A stretch of DNA of 64,000 bases. Origin: an uncultured Candidatus Saccharibacteria bacterium. GTDB lineage: Bacteria; Patescibacteriota; Saccharimonadia; Saccharimonadales; Saccharimonadaceae. The stretch is taken from the NCBI GenBank assembly GCA_945873065.1, contig CAMCBN010000003.1, forward strand, positions 5,166 through 69,165, written 5' to 3'. Under the pieces are notes generated by a model. It was not told the origin of the DNA. It made no database searches and saw only the letters and a program-made list of their open reading frames with translations. The position numbers and the translations under genes are program-made. Each line of letters starts with the position of its first letter. The stretch's first letter is position 1. Positions 3,153 through 11,985 of this stretch are shown in pieces.

Positions 3153-3611
3153 ATGTTACATGCTTCATATGTGCGCAGCCGCACGACGACGAAACAGTAC
3201 GCCTGGCATACGAAAAAGCGCCACTACACAAAAGAGAAAGCCACTGAATGTGATTTTTGCACATTACTAAAGCACCCTACAGCACAAGTTGTCGCTGTAT
3301 ACGAACATTGCTCGGTGATCAAAAATAATTTCCCTTACGATATGTGGGACCATTATGGTGTGAACGATCACCTGATGGTGGTGCCAAAGCGTCATGTCGT
3401 TAGTCTCGGCGATCTCACGCCAGAGGAGCAACTAGATTGCCTAAAAGCGATTACCAAATACGAAGCTGATGGCTACTCTATCTACGCTCGTGCACCCAGC
3501 AACAAAGGTAAATCTATCACTCACCAACACACCCACCTGATCAAGACCGATGACAAACGCAAAAAATTCATTCTTTATTTAGCCCAACCATATCTTAGAC
3601 TCATGCGATGA
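3153..3611 (+). CDS. HIT-family nucleotide hydrolase
   Basis: CDFC zinc motif, HLMVVPKRH, histidine triad HQHTH; start codon uncertain. Confidence 0.85.
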   Translation: MLHASYVRSRTTTKQYAWHTKKRHYTKEKATECDFCTLLKHPTAQVVAVYEHCSVIKNNFPYDMWDHYGVNDHLMVVPKRHVVSLGDLTPEEQLDCLKAITKYEADGYSIYARAPSNKGKSITHQHTHLIKTDDKRKKFILYLAQPYLRLMR

Positions 3612-3628: not shown

Positions 3629-5407
3629 TTATTCTACGGCAGATTCTGTATAGTAGTCTACCAATTTTTGCTCTAGTTCATCGCCACCCACATTCGATTG
3701 ACCGTTTGTTTCGTAGCTATGTGGGTCCATTCGGCTACGGCGCGCGTGGATACTTTCTAGAATCTCGACGAAGTTCTTGCGTGTAGCTCTGGCCCAGGCT
3801 GCTAGCTCTTGCTGACGTTTTTCTTTTTGTCTGTCGCTCATGCCACTGTAGTCCTCACGCTTGATACGAGTATCGATGTACTTATACGCTATATGAGCGA
3901 TATCGCCCAGACGCGAACGTCGTCTCTCAGCCTTCGTGAGAAATTGTACTTCTACGGGTATGTTAATTTTTTTGCTTTCTTCACTAGAATCTTCTAGAGG
4001 TAGTACAAAAGTAGCTTTAGCAACATTCATGATCGCATAACCATTAGATCCGACATCTTCCTCAGTTTGTTTTTTTACCATATATGATCTATTGTCACTT
4101 ATAGATTCAACGCAGTGAGATGTTTCGAATTCATCGCTGCTCTCTAGTGCTTGATCTTTGTCGTTTAATGACGCTACCATAGTATCAACATAGTGATCTG
4201 AGCCTTGTATGTATATGGCAGCACGTTTACCACGAGCGGGCTTGAGATGTAATTCGTTATTTTTTGCGCGTTGTTGTATGTATTCACAAAAGTTACCAAA
4301 GTCACGTCGAGACTTCTCTTCGTCATCTGATATCACCATCAGACCGACCATATCCATCGGATCTTCACCTTCGTAACGAGCATACTTATCTGCACATGAA
4401 CCAACTGTCTTCAAGCGATAATTACCCGAGACTAACGAGCTGTCATCAGCGGCAAAAAGAAATTCACCGACCTGTACTGGCAATTCATTTCGATCTTCGT
4501 AATCAGGCTCAACGACTCGCACCATAGTCAGTTGGTCTTTGTTCTTGCCCAGGGCTTTACGTATGACATTAGCCAAACCGGCCCGATCGATATCTGCCAA
4601 GCGGGCCTCGGCTTTTTTGATTAACTCACCTTGTCCTTGCTTTTGCAAACGGATGGTCTTGGCGCGATCCATCAGATACGATCCAAGCCCTTCAAGCCCT
4701 ACTACTTCACAAATTGGTGCATAGAACGACTCTGCCTCTAACACATCTTGCAACAATGCCGACTCGCGCTCAGATGATGGGTAGCGAAGGTTATCGACCA
4801 GCTCGCAGGCCTTAATGATAACGGATTCGAGATTAACGTTATTTAGTAAACGACGCATGTCATCGCAGTCGATAATAGGCTCGGCTGTTTTCCACACTTT
4901 AGCTGGTATATTACCCTTGTAACCGTTGACTATCATCTCGACTATCTCATCATCAAGCGGGCTATCGCCGACCTCCGCCTGGCGGGCCATTTCTTTGCGG
5001 TGTTTGCCAGCTGCTACTTCGATATTATCGAGGTCACTTAGTACATTACGCGTAAATTGGCGTCGATCTTCCGGAATCTCTGGATCAGACAGGTAAGCCA
5101 AAAGAGCTTTGGCAGCAGCGGCTTGCGATTTAGCGGTGTATTTTTCGTTTTTATTAAGAAATCGTGACACCACATCGTGCAATAAAATAGCATCGCTACA
5201 ATCTGGTACTAATTTACCAGCGAAAGCCTCTACCAAGCTGCTCGTACGCAGAGCATGTTCCTTGAAATCGGCACGCTCTTGCTCGGCGTTCGCTAAGTAA
5301 TCTTCAACAATAGCATCAACGGCGGTGAGATGCTCGCCATTACATTCCACTTCGGCTATAGATACCGATGGGCAGACCTGCAAAGATTCAGTCATAAGAT
5401 CCTTCAT
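3629..5407 (-). CDS. Divergent RelA/SpoT homolog (HD + synthetase domains only, no TGS/ACT)
   Basis: AILLHDVV, IIKACELVDNL, FYAPICEVVG, YRLKTVGSCADK, DMVGLMVI, NGY, VEVQFLT, GDIAHIAYK occur in the order of RSH hydrolase/synthetase motifs. Confidence 0.75.
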   Translation of the reverse strand: MKDLMTESLQVCPSVSIAEVECNGEHLTAVDAIVEDYLANAEQERADFKEHALRTSSLVEAFAGKLVPDCSDAILLHDVVSRFLNKNEKYTAKSQAAAAKALLAYLSDPEIPEDRRQFTRNVLSDLDNIEVAAGKHRKEMARQAEVGDSPLDDEIVEMIVNGYKGNIPAKVWKTAEPIIDCDDMRRLLNNVNLESVIIKACELVDNLRYPSSERESALLQDVLEAESFYAPICEVVGLEGLGSYLMDRAKTIRLQKQGQGELIKKAEARLADIDRAGLANVIRKALGKNKDQLTMVRVVEPDYEDRNELPVQVGEFLFAADDSSLVSGNYRLKTVGSCADKYARYEGEDPMDMVGLMVISDDEEKSRRDFGNFCEYIQQRAKNNELHLKPARGKRAAIYIQGSDHYVDTMVASLNDKDQALESSDEFETSHCVESISDNRSYMVKKQTEEDVGSNGYAIMNVAKATFVLPLEDSSEESKKINIPVEVQFLTKAERRRSRLGDIAHIAYKYIDTRIKREDYSGMSDRQKEKRQQELAAWARATRKNFVEILESIHARRSRMDPHSYETNGQSNVGGDELEQKLVDYYTESAVE

Positions 5408-5477
5408 TGTAGATTATTTACTTCTGTTTGTCAACTACTGATTGCCTTTCATTCTAGGAGATGATACAATGCCTAGT

Positions 5478-5620
5478 AGACATTGCCAAAGACAGTAGCG
5501 GGCGATTGAGGCCGATAAGAATGCTACCGAGGATTTCGACACACTGTCATACACATATCCAATATATGACAGCAAGGGTGAAACACGAACCGTCTTTGGC
5601 TTACGAAGGCGTTTTTTGTT
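5478..5620 (+). promoter_or_regulatory. L10 (rplJ) leader with attenuator-like hairpin
   Basis: AAAGACAGTAGC...TAAGAATGCTACCGAGG core upstream of rplJ; GCCAAAGAC (5485-5493) is complementary to GTCTTTGGC (5592-5600), which overlaps hairpin 5591-5611 followed by a T run. Confidence 0.8.
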
Positions 5621-5681
5621 GGCAGTGTCGATCTTTAACAATGCGGTCGTATTATCAACACTAACCAAAGGAGTATTATCG

Positions 5682-6203
5682 ATGGCTATTTCCAAAGATA
5701 AGAAACAAGCTTTGGTTGCTGAGATGAGTGAACTATTTGCGAATGCAAAGGGTACCGCTGTCGCTAAATATCAAGGTACTAGCGTAGCTGATTTGCAGGA
5801 GCTACGCAAAGCTGCTCGCGAAAATGGCATAGTCGTCAAGGTGGTTAAAAACCGCCTGGTGCGCGTCGCTTTCGCTGAGCTAGATACCTACAAGGACACT
5901 GACACATCTGCACTGCAGGGTCAGCTAATTTATGCGATTTCAAGTGACGATGAAGTCATGGCGGCAAAAGTCCTTAATGATTTCGCCAAAACTCATCCTA
6001 GCGTTGAGCTGGTCGCTGGTTTCAGCGGCGAAGGTTTGGCACAAAGCACTGCTGATGTTACAGCACTAGCAGGCTTGCCGAGCAAAAATCAGCTCATCGC
6101 CGAAACTGTCGCGCAACTGCTTTCACCAGTGCACGATGTTACCAACGCGCTTTCTGGCAATTTACATGCATTGCTAGATGGAGTCGAAGCCAAAGCTGCT
6201 TAA
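5682..6203 (+). CDS. rplJ: 50S ribosomal protein L10
   Basis: LQELRK, VVKNRL, LPSKNQL motifs; SD AAGGAG at 5668-5673 supports ATG 5682. Confidence 0.96.
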   Translation: MAISKDKKQALVAEMSELFANAKGTAVAKYQGTSVADLQELRKAARENGIVVKVVKNRLVRVAFAELDTYKDTDTSALQGQLIYAISSDDEVMAAKVLNDFAKTHPSVELVAGFSGEGLAQSTADVTALAGLPSKNQLIAETVAQLLSPVHDVTNALSGNLHALLDGVEAKAA

Positions 6204-6862: not shown

Positions 6863-7381
6863 ATGTCTGATTTACCAGAAAAACAAGTTAAGCGATTACG
6901 ATCGCTTATTCAGGAGGCCGAGACGAACCTCGCCGCCGCCAAAGAATTATTATTAAGTATCATTGGTGATGATGGCACAGCTGTCGTCACGACGAGCGGA
7001 CACGATACGTCTGTCTCGGGTAAGGTTGTCGAAGGGGTGTTTGATGGGCAGGTTATGGTCGGTCCTGATGGCAAGAACTATCCAGTACCAGCAAACTACG
7101 CCAGTAAATCCAAGCTGGTCGAGGGCGACATCTTGAAGTTAACTATCGCTGATGATGGTGGCTTTATTTACAAGCAGATTGGCCCAGTAGTGCGCAAACA
7201 GATTATTGGTACATTGACACAGCACGATGGAGTGTACTACGTCGAGGCCCAAGGTCGGGAGTATCGCATATTACTCGCTAGCGTGACATATTTCCGGATC
7301 GAGATCGGCGCCCAAGTGACGATTTTAGTACCCGAAGACAACCCCGACGCTACGTGGGCAGCGGTCGAGGCGGCATTGTAA
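6863..7381 (+). CDS. Conserved CPR-type hypothetical protein (N-terminal coiled coil, beta-rich C-terminus)
   Basis: 172-aa ORF with own promoter; helical N-terminus then G/V/Y-rich strands (GVFDGQVM, YPVPANYASKSKLVEGD); not an L7/L12 sequence. Confidence 0.8.
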   Translation: MSDLPEKQVKRLRSLIQEAETNLAAAKELLLSIIGDDGTAVVTTSGHDTSVSGKVVEGVFDGQVMVGPDGKNYPVPANYASKSKLVEGDILKLTIADDGGFIYKQIGPVVRKQIIGTLTQHDGVYYVEAQGREYRILLASVTYFRIEIGAQVTILVPEDNPDATWAAVEAAL

Positions 7382-8301
7382 CTTCAGGCGCGGGCAAAGT
7401 GGCGCACAAATTTATCGATTTGCCAATTGGAACATTTCTACTCACCAGAGTTAGTTTTGATAGCGAGCATAATGCACCGTATCTGCGCTTGATGAACGAG
7501 GCTGGTGAGTTTTTATATGCGCACCCAGGCGGTCAATGTACGCTCGAATTTAACATGCACCGCAAACGTTGTATCGGCTGGTATGATATGCGAGCGGGCA
7601 ATTGTCATTCATGCCCAGCCGAGCGTGAGGTTGATGATAAGTATGAGCAATGTCCCGAATGCCAGCAAAAAACTGGCTTCAACCCAGCTTTTTATAACAC
7701 CACTGAACTGAGCCAGCAGCAAGCCGAATTAAACGCCAAGCCGCACATATTGTATCTGGCGTATTTCGCACCGCATGTTATCAAAGTTGGCATCACGTAT
7801 GCCGCTCGTAATTTGGCGCGGCTACTGGAGCAGGGAGCGCGCAGCGCCGTCATTCTCGAGACCTTTCCCAGCGCCAATATAGCGCGGCAATACGAAGCAC
7901 AGATTGCTCGGCTGCCAGGAATATGTGAAAGCGTACAGCTACGTAAGAAAATTAATTTATTGACCGAACAGCGCTACGATCAAACGACAGCGCGCCAATC
8001 ATTAGAGCAGGCAGTGCAAGAAATTACAATGCGCTTGAATGTATCCTTTGAAGACTGCGAATACCTGGAATTATCTCGTTACATGTTGGATGGGCCTGAA
8101 TTTGACAGCACGATGTTAAGCGAAATCAGCGAGCCGAAAATTTCCGGCGAATTTGTCGGGATGATCGGCTCGCTAATCATTATGCGCTACGGCGAACGCC
8201 CAATCTTTTTGCCGCTAAAAAAGTTCATCGGCCGCGACGTCATCATCTCGCGCGAAACTGTCCCGCTTGAACTCGCGCCGCTACAAACGGCGTTGTTTTG
8301 A
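7354..8301 (+). CDS. DUF2797-like protein
   Basis: CIG...C...QCPEC zinc-like cysteines, LYLAY...KVGIT, RLLEQGA; true start may be GTG 7399. Confidence 0.75.
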   Translation: MGSGRGGIVTSGAGKVAHKFIDLPIGTFLLTRVSFDSEHNAPYLRLMNEAGEFLYAHPGGQCTLEFNMHRKRCIGWYDMRAGNCHSCPAEREVDDKYEQCPECQQKTGFNPAFYNTTELSQQQAELNAKPHILYLAYFAPHVIKVGITYAARNLARLLEQGARSAVILETFPSANIARQYEAQIARLPGICESVQLRKKINLLTEQRYDQTTARQSLEQAVQEITMRLNVSFEDCEYLELSRYMLDGPEFDSTMLSEISEPKISGEFVGMIGSLIIMRYGERPIFLPLKKFIGRDVIISRETVPLELAPLQTALF

Positions 8302-8337
8302 CCAACTGTTGCCAGGGCCGTATGCTATTATTAAAGC

Positions 8338-9039
8338 ATGGATAGCAAAAATATCTTGAATAGCCTTCATACCCTCGCTACTGGCAATGACGATTACGCT
8401 GCATTTAATCGGCGCATCGTCAATACGCAACAGGCGGTGCTCGGCGTGCGCGTGCCAGACATGCGGCGACTCGCAAGAGCCGTCGCGAAAGAAGCGACAG
8501 CTGATAATACCCGCAAATTACTTGACGAGAAATCTAATATTTTTGAATATATTTTCACGGTTGGGCTCATTATTTCTTACGCGAAATTAGACGACGCAGC
8601 AGCAATTACTCTAACGCGGAAATGGCTAGGGCAGGTCGACTCGTGGGCACAGATTGATTCGGTAGCAGATAAAAATCGACGCTACATGCACACGGCGTGG
8701 CGGAAGTTTGTATTGGAATGTCTGGAGAGTCAGCAGGAATTTTCTGTGCGATTTGGCGTAATTGTCTTGATGACGAACTATTTGGACGAATCGCACATCG
8801 ACGAAGTTTTGGATAAGCTACGTGCCGTGAAACATGATGGGTACTATGTCAAGATGGCGCTAGCCTGGACATACGCGACTGCGGCGATCAATTTTTTCGA
8901 CAAAGTTATGAACGAGTTGGCGAGCGGTGCGATTGATCCGTGGACGACCAAAAAATCCTATCAAAAAATGCACGAATCGCGACGATTTACAGAGGAGCAG
9001 CGTAAAGTTATTGATCAAATGCGCAGCAGGGCACGATAA
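8338..9039 (+). CDS. DNA alkylation repair protein (AlkD-like HEAT-repeat family)
   Basis: LGVRVPDMRRLA, VDSWAQID, EFSVRFG, YYVKMALAW. Confidence 0.85.
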   Translation: MDSKNILNSLHTLATGNDDYAAFNRRIVNTQQAVLGVRVPDMRRLARAVAKEATADNTRKLLDEKSNIFEYIFTVGLIISYAKLDDAAAITLTRKWLGQVDSWAQIDSVADKNRRYMHTAWRKFVLECLESQQEFSVRFGVIVLMTNYLDESHIDEVLDKLRAVKHDGYYVKMALAWTYATAAINFFDKVMNELASGAIDPWTTKKSYQKMHESRRFTEEQRKVIDQMRSRAR

Positions 9040-9158
9040 CTACCCTATTGAATGTTATTTAATAAGCTGACGCTTAGAACGCAAGAGCTCATTAGTAATG
9101 TTAGCTCGTCGACACGCGCCGCAAAAATTGCTATAATCACTCGAAAAGGAGCAGGGGA

Positions 9159-10640
9159 GTGAGTCAGGCATTATACCGAAAATACCGCAGTAAGTCGCTC
9201 GACGAGATCGTTGGGCAACCACATATTACGACGATCCTCAAACGGGCTATTGCTCGTAGTGTCATTGCTCATGCATACTTATTAACCGGACCGCGCGGCG
9301 TTGGCAAGACATCAATCGCTCGAATTTTAGCTCATGAGATCAATCATATACCATATATCGGTGAGTCGACTCATCTCGATATTATTGAAATTGATGCGGC
9401 CAGTAATAATTCAGTAGAAGATATACGCGACCTACGCAAAAAAGCACAAATCGCACCAGTCAGCGCCGCCAAAAAAATATATATCATCGATGAAGTACAC
9501 ATGTTGAGCAAATCGGCATTCAATGCGCTACTAAAGACTCTAGAGGAGCCCCCTGAACACGTAGTATTCATCCTCGCTACAACTGACGCTGACAAGCTAC
9601 CAGCCACAATCTTGAGTCGGGTGCAGCGTTTTAATTTTCGGTCTATCAGCGTGGGTGATATAGTACATCATCTGACGACGATCGCCAAATCTGAGCAGAT
9701 CGATATTACCCCTGAAGCACTAACGCTGATAGCACAGCATGGCGATGGGAGTTTTCGTGATAGTATTAGCCTGCTCGACCAAGCACGCTCATTAAGCGAT
9801 CAGACTATCGACTACGATATGGTAGCAGGCATGCTAGGATTAGCTGACGAAGCGATACTATCAAAGCTACTGGAGGCTCGTCAGACGAAAGATGTAGCTA
9901 AGATAGCTCGATTGATCGATCAAGCCGAGCAGAGCGGGGTGCCAGCTGATATCTTGGCTGATCAATTAATACAAATGATTCGCCAGCAGGTAGTGTCATC
10001 GCCTACCCTCGTCCCTCTCCTCGATGAATTACTCGAGGTGCGACACGCTACCTGGCCACAAGTCAAACTACTCACAGTCCTATCGCGTCAGGCATCGACT
10101 GAATCGTCTGAGCAATCAAACGCACTACCTCAAGAGGATGTTTCGCCAACGACAGCCACCAGTCATGTCGAATCTCCGCCAGCAGAATATCATTACCACA
10201 CTTCGTCGGATCTAGATCAGTCTACAGAGATCGAGAAAATACCTACTCCTACACCAAACACACAAAATACAAATACCGGTAGTAATCCCAGCTCGATACT
10301 ACCACCAAAGGAAGAATCACCACATACACCGCCAATTCATGAATTTCCTTGGCAAAAATTCACCGATGCATTAAACGGAAAGATAGGCGCGTATACTATG
10401 CTAGTCCGCGCTGATTATATCTTTGACGGGGCGACTTTGCAAATTTTTGCGGGTCGGAAATTCGCTAAGACACAACTAGACAAGTCATTGCCGATCTTGA
10501 CACAAACCGCCCAATCGCTTGGATTCAACGATATAGACATCACAATACTACCATCCGCAAAACCACCACAGGATAGCCAAAAAGCAGCTATCCTTGCTAT
10601 GATGGGGGGAGGAGAAGAGATCACTATCGATGCCGAATAA
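9159..10640 (+). CDS. dnaX: DNA polymerase III subunit gamma/tau
   Basis: LYRKYR, GPRGVGKTS Walker A, EIDAASN, IIDEVHML, NALLKTLEEPP; GTG start with SD. Confidence 0.97.
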   Translation: MSQALYRKYRSKSLDEIVGQPHITTILKRAIARSVIAHAYLLTGPRGVGKTSIARILAHEINHIPYIGESTHLDIIEIDAASNNSVEDIRDLRKKAQIAPVSAAKKIYIIDEVHMLSKSAFNALLKTLEEPPEHVVFILATTDADKLPATILSRVQRFNFRSISVGDIVHHLTTIAKSEQIDITPEALTLIAQHGDGSFRDSISLLDQARSLSDQTIDYDMVAGMLGLADEAILSKLLEARQTKDVAKIARLIDQAEQSGVPADILADQLIQMIRQQVVSSPTLVPLLDELLEVRHATWPQVKLLTVLSRQASTESSEQSNALPQEDVSPTTATSHVESPPAEYHYHTSSDLDQSTEIEKIPTPTPNTQNTNTGSNPSSILPPKEESPHTPPIHEFPWQKFTDALNGKIGAYTMLVRADYIFDGATLQIFAGRKFAKTQLDKSLPILTQTAQSLGFNDIDITILPSAKPPQDSQKAAILAMMGGGEEITIDAE

Positions 10641-11985
10641 TAACACCCAAACCAATCCAGCTAAAGTCCCCCCACAAAGTCTTGATGCCGAGATGAGCTT
10701 ACTCGGAGCAGCGCTGATAGATGATAATGTACTAGCCGATGCTAGTGAGTTACTGACATCGAAGGATTTTTATGATAAGCGTCACCAATTAATCTTCGCC
10801 GCTATGATGCGGCTATACGAACGACATAAGCCTGTTGACCTCCTCACGGTAACAGACCAGCTGCAAAACAAAGACCAGCTCGAGACTATCGGTGGATCGG
10901 CTTATCTCACAGAATTAACGAACTATGTACCGACAGCCGCTCATGCAAGGAGCTACGCCGAGATCATCGCACAAAAAGCAGTGCGACGCCGATTGATCAA
11001 GGTGAGTGCCGATATCAGCCAACTCGGTTTTGACGAGGAAACATCGACACAAGAGCTGCTAGAAAAGGCCGAGGCAGAATTATTCAGCGTATCCGACCAG
11101 TCACTCAAGCAAGATCTAGTCAGTCTAGAAAGTATCCTGACTGACAGTTTCGATCGAATCGAAGAGCTGCATCGCAATAAAGGGCAGCTACGTGGCATCC
11201 GGACAGGATATCGTGATCTTGACACGATGACAGCTGGATTACAGCGTTCAGACTTGATAGTTATCGCTGCTCGACCAGCGATGGGGAAGACTACTCTGGT
11301 GACAAATCTCGCCTACAACGTAGCAACGATAGCTAAACTACCCGTACTATTTTTTAGCTTAGAGATGAGCAAAGAGCAGCTAACTGATCGTATGTTAGCC
11401 GATGCCAGCGGTGTAGATAGCTGGAACATCCGCACCGGTAACCTCAGTGACGATGACTGGGCAAAGCTGTCCGACGCGATGGGAGAAATGGCAGAGGCAC
11501 CGATTTTTATTGATGATACACCAGGGTTGAGTGTCCTTGAGATGCGCACCAAAGCGCGCCGTGCCATGCACGATCAACCACTGGGACTGGTGATAGTCGA
11601 CTACCTTCAGCTGATGCAAGCTAATGGTAACCATCAGGGTAATCGCGTACAAGAAGTGTCGGAAATTTCTCGTGGACTGAAATTGATCGCTCGTGAACTT
11701 AATGTACCAGTGATCGCTCTTAGTCAGCTTAGCCGTACAGTCGAAAGTCGCAATCCACCGATACCGCAATTAGCCGACTTGCGTGAATCCGGGTCGATCG
11801 AACAGGACGCCGACATAGTCAGTTTCATCTATCGTCCTGGTTATTACGAGCCCGACAACCCCGAAGTACAAAACATTACCGATCTCATCATCGCCAAGCA
11901 CCGTAATGGACCTGTTGGCAAAATTCAGCTGTACTTCCACCCTGAGCGTTTACGCTTTATGAGCCTCGACAAACGCCACGAATAG
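10630..11985 (+). CDS. dnaB: Replicative DNA helicase
   Basis: PPQSLDAE, AARPAMGKT, FSLEMS, VDYLQL, LSQLSR, LRESGSIEQDAD; overlaps dnaX by 11 nt. Confidence 0.98.
   Translation: MPNNNTQTNPAKVPPQSLDAEMSLLGAALIDDNVLADASELLTSKDFYDKRHQLIFAAMMRLYERHKPVDLLTVTDQLQNKDQLETIGGSAYLTELTNYVPTAAHARSYAEIIAQKAVRRRLIKVSADISQLGFDEETSTQELLEKAEAELFSVSDQSLKQDLVSLESILTDSFDRIEELHRNKGQLRGIRTGYRDLDTMTAGLQRSDLIVIAARPAMGKTTLVTNLAYNVATIAKLPVLFFSLEMSKEQLTDRMLADASGVDSWNIRTGNLSDDDWAKLSDAMGEMAEAPIFIDDTPGLSVLEMRTKARRAMHDQPLGLVIVDYLQLMQANGNHQGNRVQEVSEISRGLKLIARELNVPVIALSQLSRTVESRNPPIPQLADLRESGSIEQDADIVSFIYRPGYYEPDNPEVQNITDLIIAKHRNGPVGKIQLYFHPERLRFMSLDKRHE

Follow-up and report, generated by a model that had tools for sequence, protein, structure and literature searches.

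The subject of this work is a 592-residue open reading frame (ORF) on the minus strand, positions 3629 to 5407, of a 64,000-nucleotide stretch (here, the window) of contig CAMCBN010000003.1 from an uncultured Candidatus Saccharibacteria bacterium. It encodes an unannotated, lineage-restricted paralogue of the RelA/SpoT homologue (RSH) enzymes that is neither an artefact nor an ordinary Rel, and that is probably a pyrophosphokinase that needs no ribosome and has a rebuilt acceptor pocket, joined to a hydrolase domain that would be either non-canonical or a pseudo-hydrolase. Whether its product is (p)ppGpp or something else stands at roughly even odds. RSH enzymes set bacterial growth through alarmones, and the RSH fold has recently been shown to make (pp)pApp or to pyrophosphorylate tRNA. 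A first-pass annotation had singled out the ORF for its rewired RSH motifs, and translation recovered all of the motif strings quoted there.

The relationship to RSH proteins emerged from profiles. A Pfam search found no HD_4 (PF13328) match in the protein itself, a single-sequence search of the PDB returned spurious repeat-protein matches alone, a PDB search with a first 25-sequence profile had a best E of just 0.21, and hhalign against one single Rel sequence gave a probability of 38%. Among 25 relatives, Pfam detected RelA_SpoT in 19 (best E=4e-6) and HD_4 in 10. When alignments of 158 non-redundant family members (<60% identity) and of 26 Patescibacteria Rel proteins were built and compared by hhalign, the two profiles matched at 98.8% probability (E=8e-16) over 425 collinear columns in global mode and at 96.6% (E=6e-10) in local mode. 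The long-RSH Rel references were RelSeq (1vj7) and the Rel proteins of T. thermophilus (RelTt; 6s2t/u/v), S. aureus (7oiw) and B. subtilis (8acu), and a profile of the pyrophosphokinase (SYNTH) domain alone retrieved from the PDB RelSeq (E=2.4e-7), S. aureus Rel (5e-7), FaRel2 (1.8e-5) and RelA (6e-5), as well as B. subtilis Rel. The AlphaFold2 model of the full protein (predicted local distance difference test, pLDDT, 84.4; predicted template modelling score 0.86) had as its best 19 Foldseek matches only catalytic regions of long RSHs (Rel/RelA/SpoT), the top one with a probability of about 1.0, while the best 19 matches of the SYNTH-only model (pLDDT 81.4) were all RelQ or RelP (probability up to 0.99). 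The resemblance to RSH proteins thus exceeds chance by far, and the motifs do stand in RSH order on an RSH fold, as had been noted from the sequence. The absence of TGS and ACT domains also held: neither Pfam nor NCBIfam found any, no domain at all was detected after residue 520, and the final 72 residues are modelled as two helices. The protein is therefore an HD (hydrolase) plus SYNTH catalytic region without the regulatory C-terminus. The family search yielded 262 matches at E<=1e-3 among 8,000 word-index candidates scored, and an exhaustive search 376 clusters at 50% identity; among the best 120 and best 150 matches listed, lengths ranged from 156 to 623 residues, mostly about 500-600, with no spill-over into the huge canonical Rel family.

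On the ATP-binding side of the SYNTH domain, hhalign places R331, K333, S337 and K341 opposite R241, K243, S247 and K251 of RelSeq. The corresponding motif was present as first described, but its spacing had been given one residue short and actually reads R.K...S...K. Pairwise identity among the sampled orthologues is often about 20%, yet R331, K333 and the catalytic D352 occur in all 158 members, E486 and H505 (which aligns with the His of AAHW) in 157, K341 and K464 in 154, G336 and G402 in 150, Q488 in 149 and T466 in 146. Together with the pattern of the HD domain described below, this conservation indicates that a SYNTH-type catalytic centre would be obligatory in the family and the HD site optional. 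The acceptor side looks different. M357 replaces the second adenine-stacking Arg (RelSeq R269, RelTt R277), a position that is Thr in 120 of 158 members; residue 460, equivalent to Y308, is Met here and Tyr or Phe in 121 of 158; K464 stands in for H312; and the equivalents of the base-reading K304 and N306 are not conserved. A competent synthetase has an adenine-stacking Arg pair (R241/R269), of which R331 is retained here, and G-loop residues for GDP/GTP (K304, N306, Y308, H312). A family-specific insert of 45-60 residues separates the helix that follows D352 from the acceptor strand; modelled here as a strand and a helix followed by a disordered loop, it is conserved at [KR]394, G402 and [YF]406. 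The letters NGY, previously counted among the retained motifs, are present, but Y457 lies in a three-residue insert found in about a quarter of the members and is not a family motif.

These data bear on the choice, left open by the first-pass annotation, between an altered pyrophosphokinase and a pseudo-enzyme; the invariant and near-invariant SYNTH residues, kept at a pairwise identity of only about 20%, favour the former as the predicted activity. That both centres are inactive, and that the protein works as a scaffold or as a nucleotide-binding regulator, such as a sensor of (p)ppGpp or ATP, seems quite improbable. Such a role would agree with the loss of the Glu-Asp pair of the HD domain, with the substituted R269, Y308 and R327 equivalents in this protein, with the lack of an HD metal site in half of the family and with the sub-threshold Pfam scores; however, binding alone needs less than a near-invariant catalytic Asp and Glu plus triphosphate-binding Arg, Lys and Lys kept at about 20% identity, and the gene is under purifying selection.

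In the HD domain, the distance from the HD motif to the KLADRLHN equivalent is about 55 residues longer than in Rel. According to hhalign, K199, E202 and N206 correspond to the Lys, the metal-binding Asp and the Asn of KLADRLHN, and D125 to the Asp of LVDGVTK. In a stretch of low alignment confidence, R45 approximates the base-stacking Arg and H51 the first His, and F48 probably takes the place of the ribose-contacting Tyr; these three equivalences presuppose a shift of one column, the printed alignment being out of register by one (as printed, R45 stands opposite the Lys preceding the Arg, and H51 opposite the residue preceding the His). All metal ligands are present (H51, H77, D78 and E202, Glu for Asp), as is N206. 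The catalytic Glu-Asp pair, in contrast, reads Ser-Arg in this protein and Asp-Arg in most relatives, and no member among the 158 has a credibly aligned pair: in the single row with Glu-Asp (P0261) the HD dyad reads Ala-Gly, and the row looks misaligned. Thus, where a competent hydrolase has Glu-Asp, the KLADRLHN Arg and the ribose-contacting Tyr, this protein has S81-R82, L203 and probably F48. In RelTt, the mutations E80Q, D81N, D81E, N150A, R43A, Y49F and R147G each abolish hydrolysis (10.1101/670703), and because the counterparts of E80, D81 and R147, and probably that of Y49, are changed here, canonical (p)ppGpp hydrolysis appears very unlikely. The description of the protein as hydrolase-dead is in this respect well founded, but too simple in its wording, given the four retained ligands and N206. 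Across the family, all four ligands are kept in 79 of the 158 members (this protein included), at least two are lost in 75 and one in 4; an alignment-free count of a hydrophobic-flanked HD motif in the N-terminal part found it in 60 of the 79 sequences scored as kept versus 5 of the 79 scored as lost. Loss of the site is recurrent, and close relatives (35-41% identity) differ in state; the all-or-none retention of the ligands indicates that the metal site is under selection in the subgroup to which this protein belongs.

The same genome also encodes a canonical Rel of 518 residues, with HDTVED, KLADRLHN, NGYQSLH, EFQIRT and a TGS domain, so the protein studied here is a second, divergent copy. 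PF04607 detects Rel in 182 of 201 species sampled from the same GTDB family, with scores near 130 bits in almost every case. Of these 201 species, 44 carry the divergent paralogue, which is spread over 22 of 95 genera and never present in two copies per genome within this sample. In a phylum-wide sample it was found in 2 of 401 genomes, both belonging to that family, and all 68 species-representative loci are titled Candidatus Saccharibacteria, Nanosynbacter, Saccharimonas or TM7 oral taxa 352/488. Carriers include oral Saccharibacteria, Nanosynbacter among them (oral taxon 488, TM7-008, TM7-053). It is very hard to maintain that the ORF is an ordinary bifunctional Rel/SpoT, odd merely through fast Saccharibacteria evolution. 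Its domain order is indeed that of the Rel N-terminal region, with the metal ligands and SYNTH catalytic residues in place, but the genome already has a normal Rel, PF04607 scores 16 bits here versus about 130 there, a TGS domain is lacking, the hydrolase residues whose mutation is lethal to RelTt activity are all changed, and the family SYNTH profile leaves a clean gap, with 58 bits or more for true members and no more than 35 bits for canonical Rel. As far as the sequence goes, an ordinary Rel is effectively refuted.

Regarding the canonical Rel of the host genome (L001 787-2343, on contig 2 of G000), this protein and those of most relatives have about 490-550 residues and consist of HD, SYNTH, TGS and little else, without the usual zinc-finger domain (ZFD) and ACT/RRM end; in G000, an inorganic pyrophosphatase gene lies immediately upstream. 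Nineteen of the 201 related genomes have no PF04607 match, and several near-complete genera (e.g., G408/G491, G410, G422/G500 and G438/G507) lack both Rel and the paralogue. RSH enzymes are thus dispensable in parts of this family, and the genera without any RSH agree with the non-essential Rel in the transposon sequencing (Tn-seq) of S. epibionticum. For Southlakia epibionticum, the annotation and the Tn-seq tables include the canonical Rel alone, as non-essential, and are uninformative on the paralogue family.

A further clue came from one genus, of which three species were sampled (G488, G535 and G357). In G488 and G535, the Rel locus by GAPDH encodes an HD-only protein of 193-196 residues (L160 1441-2031; L159 1450-2031), in which QLRKDGSPFITHP, HDTVEDT and KLADRLHN are intact. 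Both genomes carry the divergent paralogue, and neither has a detectable canonical SYNTH domain; in G357, Rel is complete and the paralogue is missing. The retention of an alarmone hydrolase in G488 and G535 would imply continued alarmone production, for which the paralogue is the sole candidate synthetase. This arrangement is suggestive, at most, of the paralogue supplying the hydrolysable alarmone in that genus.

Several observations weigh against an active alarmone-producing pyrophosphokinase. The complementarity just described rests on three species, and the HD-only protein could instead act as a small alarmone hydrolase on host-derived alarmone, or on NADPH like Mesh1. The match to Pfam RelA_SpoT (PF04607; E=0.017, 15.9 bits) falls below the cut-off of 27, and comparison with solved RSH structures gives low TM-scores (0.22-0.43), an effect of the inserts and of the variable angle between the domains. 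The RelTt mutations R277A and Y329A strongly lower synthesis (10.1101/670703), and with M357 and M460 at the equivalent positions, (p)ppGpp synthesis may be poor or absent. Finally, conservation does not extend to the guanine-reading residues, and the sequence does not reveal the substrate. Here belongs a lesser but tenable possibility, that of a pyrophosphokinase with a non-guanosine acceptor, producing another messenger or modifying a macromolecule, which would have evolved in epibiotic Saccharibacteria, would in some lineages have replaced Rel as the sole SYNTH enzyme, and would owe its fast, discordant evolution to interaction with the host bacterium or with phages.

That evolution is unusual. 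In 19 related genomes compared with the proteins of the window's genome, Rel is 58-86% identical and the paralogue 22-40%, with no correlation between the two; in the same-genus genome G570, Rel is 86% identical and the syntenic paralogue 25%. The G570 orthologue (L058 7510-9645) has 711 residues owing to a low-complexity charged insert of about 90 residues between Syn1 and the catalytic Asp, so that a new domain was rejected as the source of the extra length; a similar ORF of 732 residues exists in G498. In three clades of close relatives, the ratio of nonsynonymous to synonymous divergence (dN/dS) of the paralogue is 0.11, 0.23 and 0.25, denoting purifying selection, while its dN tops that of the called neighbouring genes and is matched only by spurious antisense ORFs and small unknown ORFs (in few comparisons). 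In a clade of 26 close relatives (L091-L154), the median dS of the paralogue is 0.43 versus 0.07-0.22 for flanking genes, 2-6 times higher, which hints that diverged alleles have entered by recombination at this gene alone. Two accounts suit the pattern as a whole: either a weakly constrained scaffold has diverged quickly while the active site stayed fixed, or recombination has replaced alleles. The gene occupies two slots of conserved synteny, amid housekeeping genes: one between a thyA, folA, dcd, tmk (sometimes HIT) cluster and rplJ, in both orientations, and another between a CofD-like gene and a group comprising RNase H, a KwaB-like protein and a Dda/RecD-like helicase. The predicted isoelectric point is 5.0 for the protein and 5.2 as the family median, against 9.4 for the genome's own Rel, and this acidity would fit a small-molecule substrate and speak against RNA or the ribosome.

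The same features invite comparison with the toxic small alarmone synthetases (toxSAS). A conflict protein of this sort would be a growth-arresting pyrophosphokinase, either a modifier of the tRNA CCA end, like FaRel2/CapRel, or a (pp)pApp synthetase, like FaRel/Tas1. It would defend against phages or attack the host bacterium, and the HD domain or the C-terminal helices would serve as a fused antitoxin or sensor. The very fast and discordant divergence, the patchy spread, the raised dS in one clade, the two orientations in the tmk-rplJ slot, the FaRel2 match of the SYNTH profile and the KwaB-like protein and helicase downstream in one syntenic context all lean that way. We nevertheless regard this role as unlikely. 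PADLOC and PHROGs gave no match, and membership of a defence system was rejected on these negatives; a phage origin was likewise rejected, since a set of 50,697 phage records contained no match and IMG/VR only one, at the end of a contig. Clustering of 24 loci revealed no neighbour, hence no small antitoxin candidate, common to both contexts, and the slots lie among ribosomal, nucleotide-metabolism and replication genes rather than in defence islands. The protein is acidic, while tRNA-modifying toxSAS would be expected to need an RNA-binding surface, and dN/dS values of 0.1-0.25 give overall no sign of positive selection. The KwaB-like neighbour, at 0.01-0.03, does not behave as a typical defence gene either. 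On the KwaB-like (DUF4868) and helicase pair itself, it lies downstream of the paralogue in nine loci (L003, at 8176-10667, L007, L040 and L042-L047), with no KwaA evident, and the dN/dS of 0.009-0.03 is unusual for a Kiwa-type defence component.

Returning to the reading as a ribosome-independent pyrophosphokinase, the protein is a lineage-specific, strongly diverged paralogue of the catalytic N-terminal half of a long RSH, with two extra helices. Its SYNTH domain would act as an Mg2+/ATP-dependent pyrophosphokinase, the ATP phosphates being held by R331, K333, S337 and K341 and catalysis being carried out by D352 and E486. The pyrophosphate would then be moved to the 3'-OH of an acceptor lodged in the remodelled pocket, where H312 is replaced by Lys, R269 by Met or Thr and R327 by Leu, K304 and N306 are unconserved, and the strand-helix insert contributes G402 and [YF]406. 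The acceptor would most likely be a free purine nucleotide, yielding (p)ppGpp or a close analogue. Without ribosome-sensing C-terminal domains, the enzyme should be independent of the ribosome, like a small alarmone synthetase (SAS). The HD domain would be mainly a pseudo-hydrolase, structural or regulatory, as in RelA; in the subgroup with the complete metal site, to which this protein belongs, it may act on another ester or bind a nucleotide.

Comparison with known systems helps to place it. With bifunctional Rel it shares HD, helical bundle and SYNTH in the same order, and a collinear series formed by H..HD..(D/E)..N, an LVDGVTK-like Asp, an ETLxIYAPL-like helix, RxKxxxSxxxK, the catalytic Asp, ExQ and an AAH..YK helix. 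It departs from Rel in lacking the TGS, helical, ZFD and ACT/RRM domains, in its substitutions (the Glu-Asp pair to Ser/Asp-Arg, the KLADRLHN Arg to Leu, R269 to Met/Thr, H312 to Lys, R327 to Leu/Val), in the extra HD residues and the insert ahead of the G-loop, in being acidic rather than basic, and in evolving several-fold faster. RelA offers a precedent for an HD module that is retained, non-catalytic for ppGpp, beside a conserved synthetase, and half of the paralogue family has, like RelA, lost the metal site outright; RelA, however, is activated by the ribosome and deacylated tRNA through its C-terminal domains and keeps R269, Y308, H312 and R327, and this protein's subgroup, unlike RelA, retains the metal ligands. 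RelQ (SAS1) and RelP (SAS2) are the best structural matches of the isolated SYNTH domain and share the expected ribosome independence, but they are single-domain tetramers of about 200-230 residues with a canonical G-loop, to which the paralogue adds an HD domain and a large insert. The toxSAS (FaRel2, CapRel, PhRel; FaRel/Tas1) resemble it in a weak FaRel2 profile match and in fast evolution, and their non-(p)ppGpp outputs show that the SYNTH fold tolerates new acceptors; they differ from it in adjacent antitoxins, in defence-island or phage context, in the absence of a fused RSH HD domain and in charge. RickRel/RickSpo are long RSHs with secondary domain loss in reduced genomes (PMC7229694), and the HD-only Rel remnant of two related species is the same kind of event; the paralogue, unlike these single-domain remnants, keeps both catalytic domains and loses the regulatory half alone. 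For the TGS-bearing Rel of G000 itself, SEML1_0554 serves as comparison (PMC10633639).

Table 1. Features of the divergent RSH gene and its immediate surroundings in the window.
Feature	Position	Strand	Remarks
Divergent RSH paralogue ORF	3629..5407	-	592 aa, intact; probably 588 aa from M5 (ATG at 5395)
Acidic N-terminus, residues 1-26	5330..5407	-	predicted disordered, pLDDT<50
RSH-type HD domain and helical bundle to SYNTH, residues 27-285	4553..5329	-	hhalign, HD_4 in relatives, Foldseek
LLHDVVSR	5162..5185	-	metal-ligand pair H77-D78 retained; catalytic E-D replaced by S81-R82
KACELVDN, KLADRLHN equivalent	4790..4813	-	metal Asp replaced by E202, Arg by L203; Asn retained (N206)
SYNTH domain, nucleotidyltransferase fold, residues 286-520	3848..4552	-	hhalign, PDB profile, Foldseek
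Syn1 RLKTVGSCADK (R331, K333, S337, K341)	4385..4417	-	ATP-phosphate binding residues by alignment
DMVGLM	4337..4354	-	D352 (codon 4352-4354) aligned with catalytic RelSeq D264, 158/158
Family-specific insert, residues 388-455	4043..4246	-	replaces RFKDYI / G-loop approach
NGYAIMNVAK, remodelled acceptor strand	4016..4045	-	residue 460 aligned with Y308, K464 with H312
EVQFLT, EIQIRT equivalent	3935..3952	-	E486/Q488 aligned with E323/Q325; L490 with R327
Two C-terminal helices, residues 521-592 (72 aa)	3632..3847	-	no known domain; R556 in 139/158
Promoter-like site TTGACA-17 nt-TACAAT	5406..5434	-	11/12 consensus matches only
HIT-family gene	3153..3611	+	Pfam HIT E=6.6e-6; intact HQHTHLI triad; convergent, outside the RSH feature
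L10 leader-like RNA	5468..5626	+	42.5 bits vs gathering score 44, E=3e-4; precedes rplJ

The coordinates are collected in Table 1. The host genome comprises 853,655 bp in 6 contigs and is 97% complete, the small size being usual for Saccharibacteria. The true start of the gene is probably M5, giving 588 residues, since the -10 element of the promoter-like site ends on the first ATG, homologues begin at M5 and a 588-residue database copy exists; a start at M5 implies a very short leader. In the window, the gene is approached by rplA, an esterase-like gene, a 210-residue ORF without assignment and the convergent HIT gene, whereas its divergent side carries the L10 leader-like RNA, rplJ, rplL, a conserved unknown gene, a DUF2797 gene and dnaX. 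The leader-like RNA stands back to back with the promoter region of the paralogue; an 86-residue ORF overlapping it, 5435-5695(-), is probably spurious, and the start of rplJ is likely the ATG giving MAISKDKKQ and not the listed TTG.

The HIT gene, tail to tail with the paralogue across a gap of 17 bp, had been put forward as a possible partner. The co-occurrence check gave no support: HIT is found in 53 and the paralogue in 44 of the 201 genomes, with an overlap of 11 against 11.6 expected (Fisher odds ratio 0.91, p=1), the stretch sampled around the paralogue includes HIT at 4 of 24 loci, and genomes with both often have them hundreds of kb apart. The partnership was rejected and the adjacency taken as incidental.

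Some features of the surroundings are worth recording in their own right. Between 84 and 6606, the usual rplK-rplA-rplJ-rplL cluster is broken between rplA and rplJ. Relatives have the RSH paralogue in this gap together with thyA, folA, dcd, tmk and, in some cases, HIT; the host genome lacks thyA, folA, dcd and tmk there and has instead an esterase-like protein whose N-terminal part includes a hydrophobic segment (1139-2188), and the 210-residue ORF (2302-2934, no Pfam match). Directly after rplL follows a 172-residue protein, 6863-7381(+), with no Pfam match and a dN of about 0 among close relatives, and then the DUF2797 protein, 7354-8301(+); about ten genomes have the two in synteny with rplJ-rplL-dnaX.

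No literature linking Saccharibacteria or Patescibacteria to such a two-domain paralogue was found, and the RSH census papers, which classify by hidden Markov models (HMMs), do not mention these lineages. The family would probably escape published HMM-based censuses, because its score lies below the Pfam cut-off. The picture it offers is that of a donor site that is invariant, an acceptor site that has been rebuilt and a hydrolase site that is decaying. Nanosynbacter lyticus ML1 and TM7x are naturally transformable (PMC10633639), and, given a transformable carrier strain, gene deletion and complementation appear practicable. If the product is (p)ppGpp, the paralogue would represent a ribosome-independent source of alarmone in organisms with minimal regulation; if the product differs, it would constitute a new nucleotide signal or modification in the relationship between epibiont and host.

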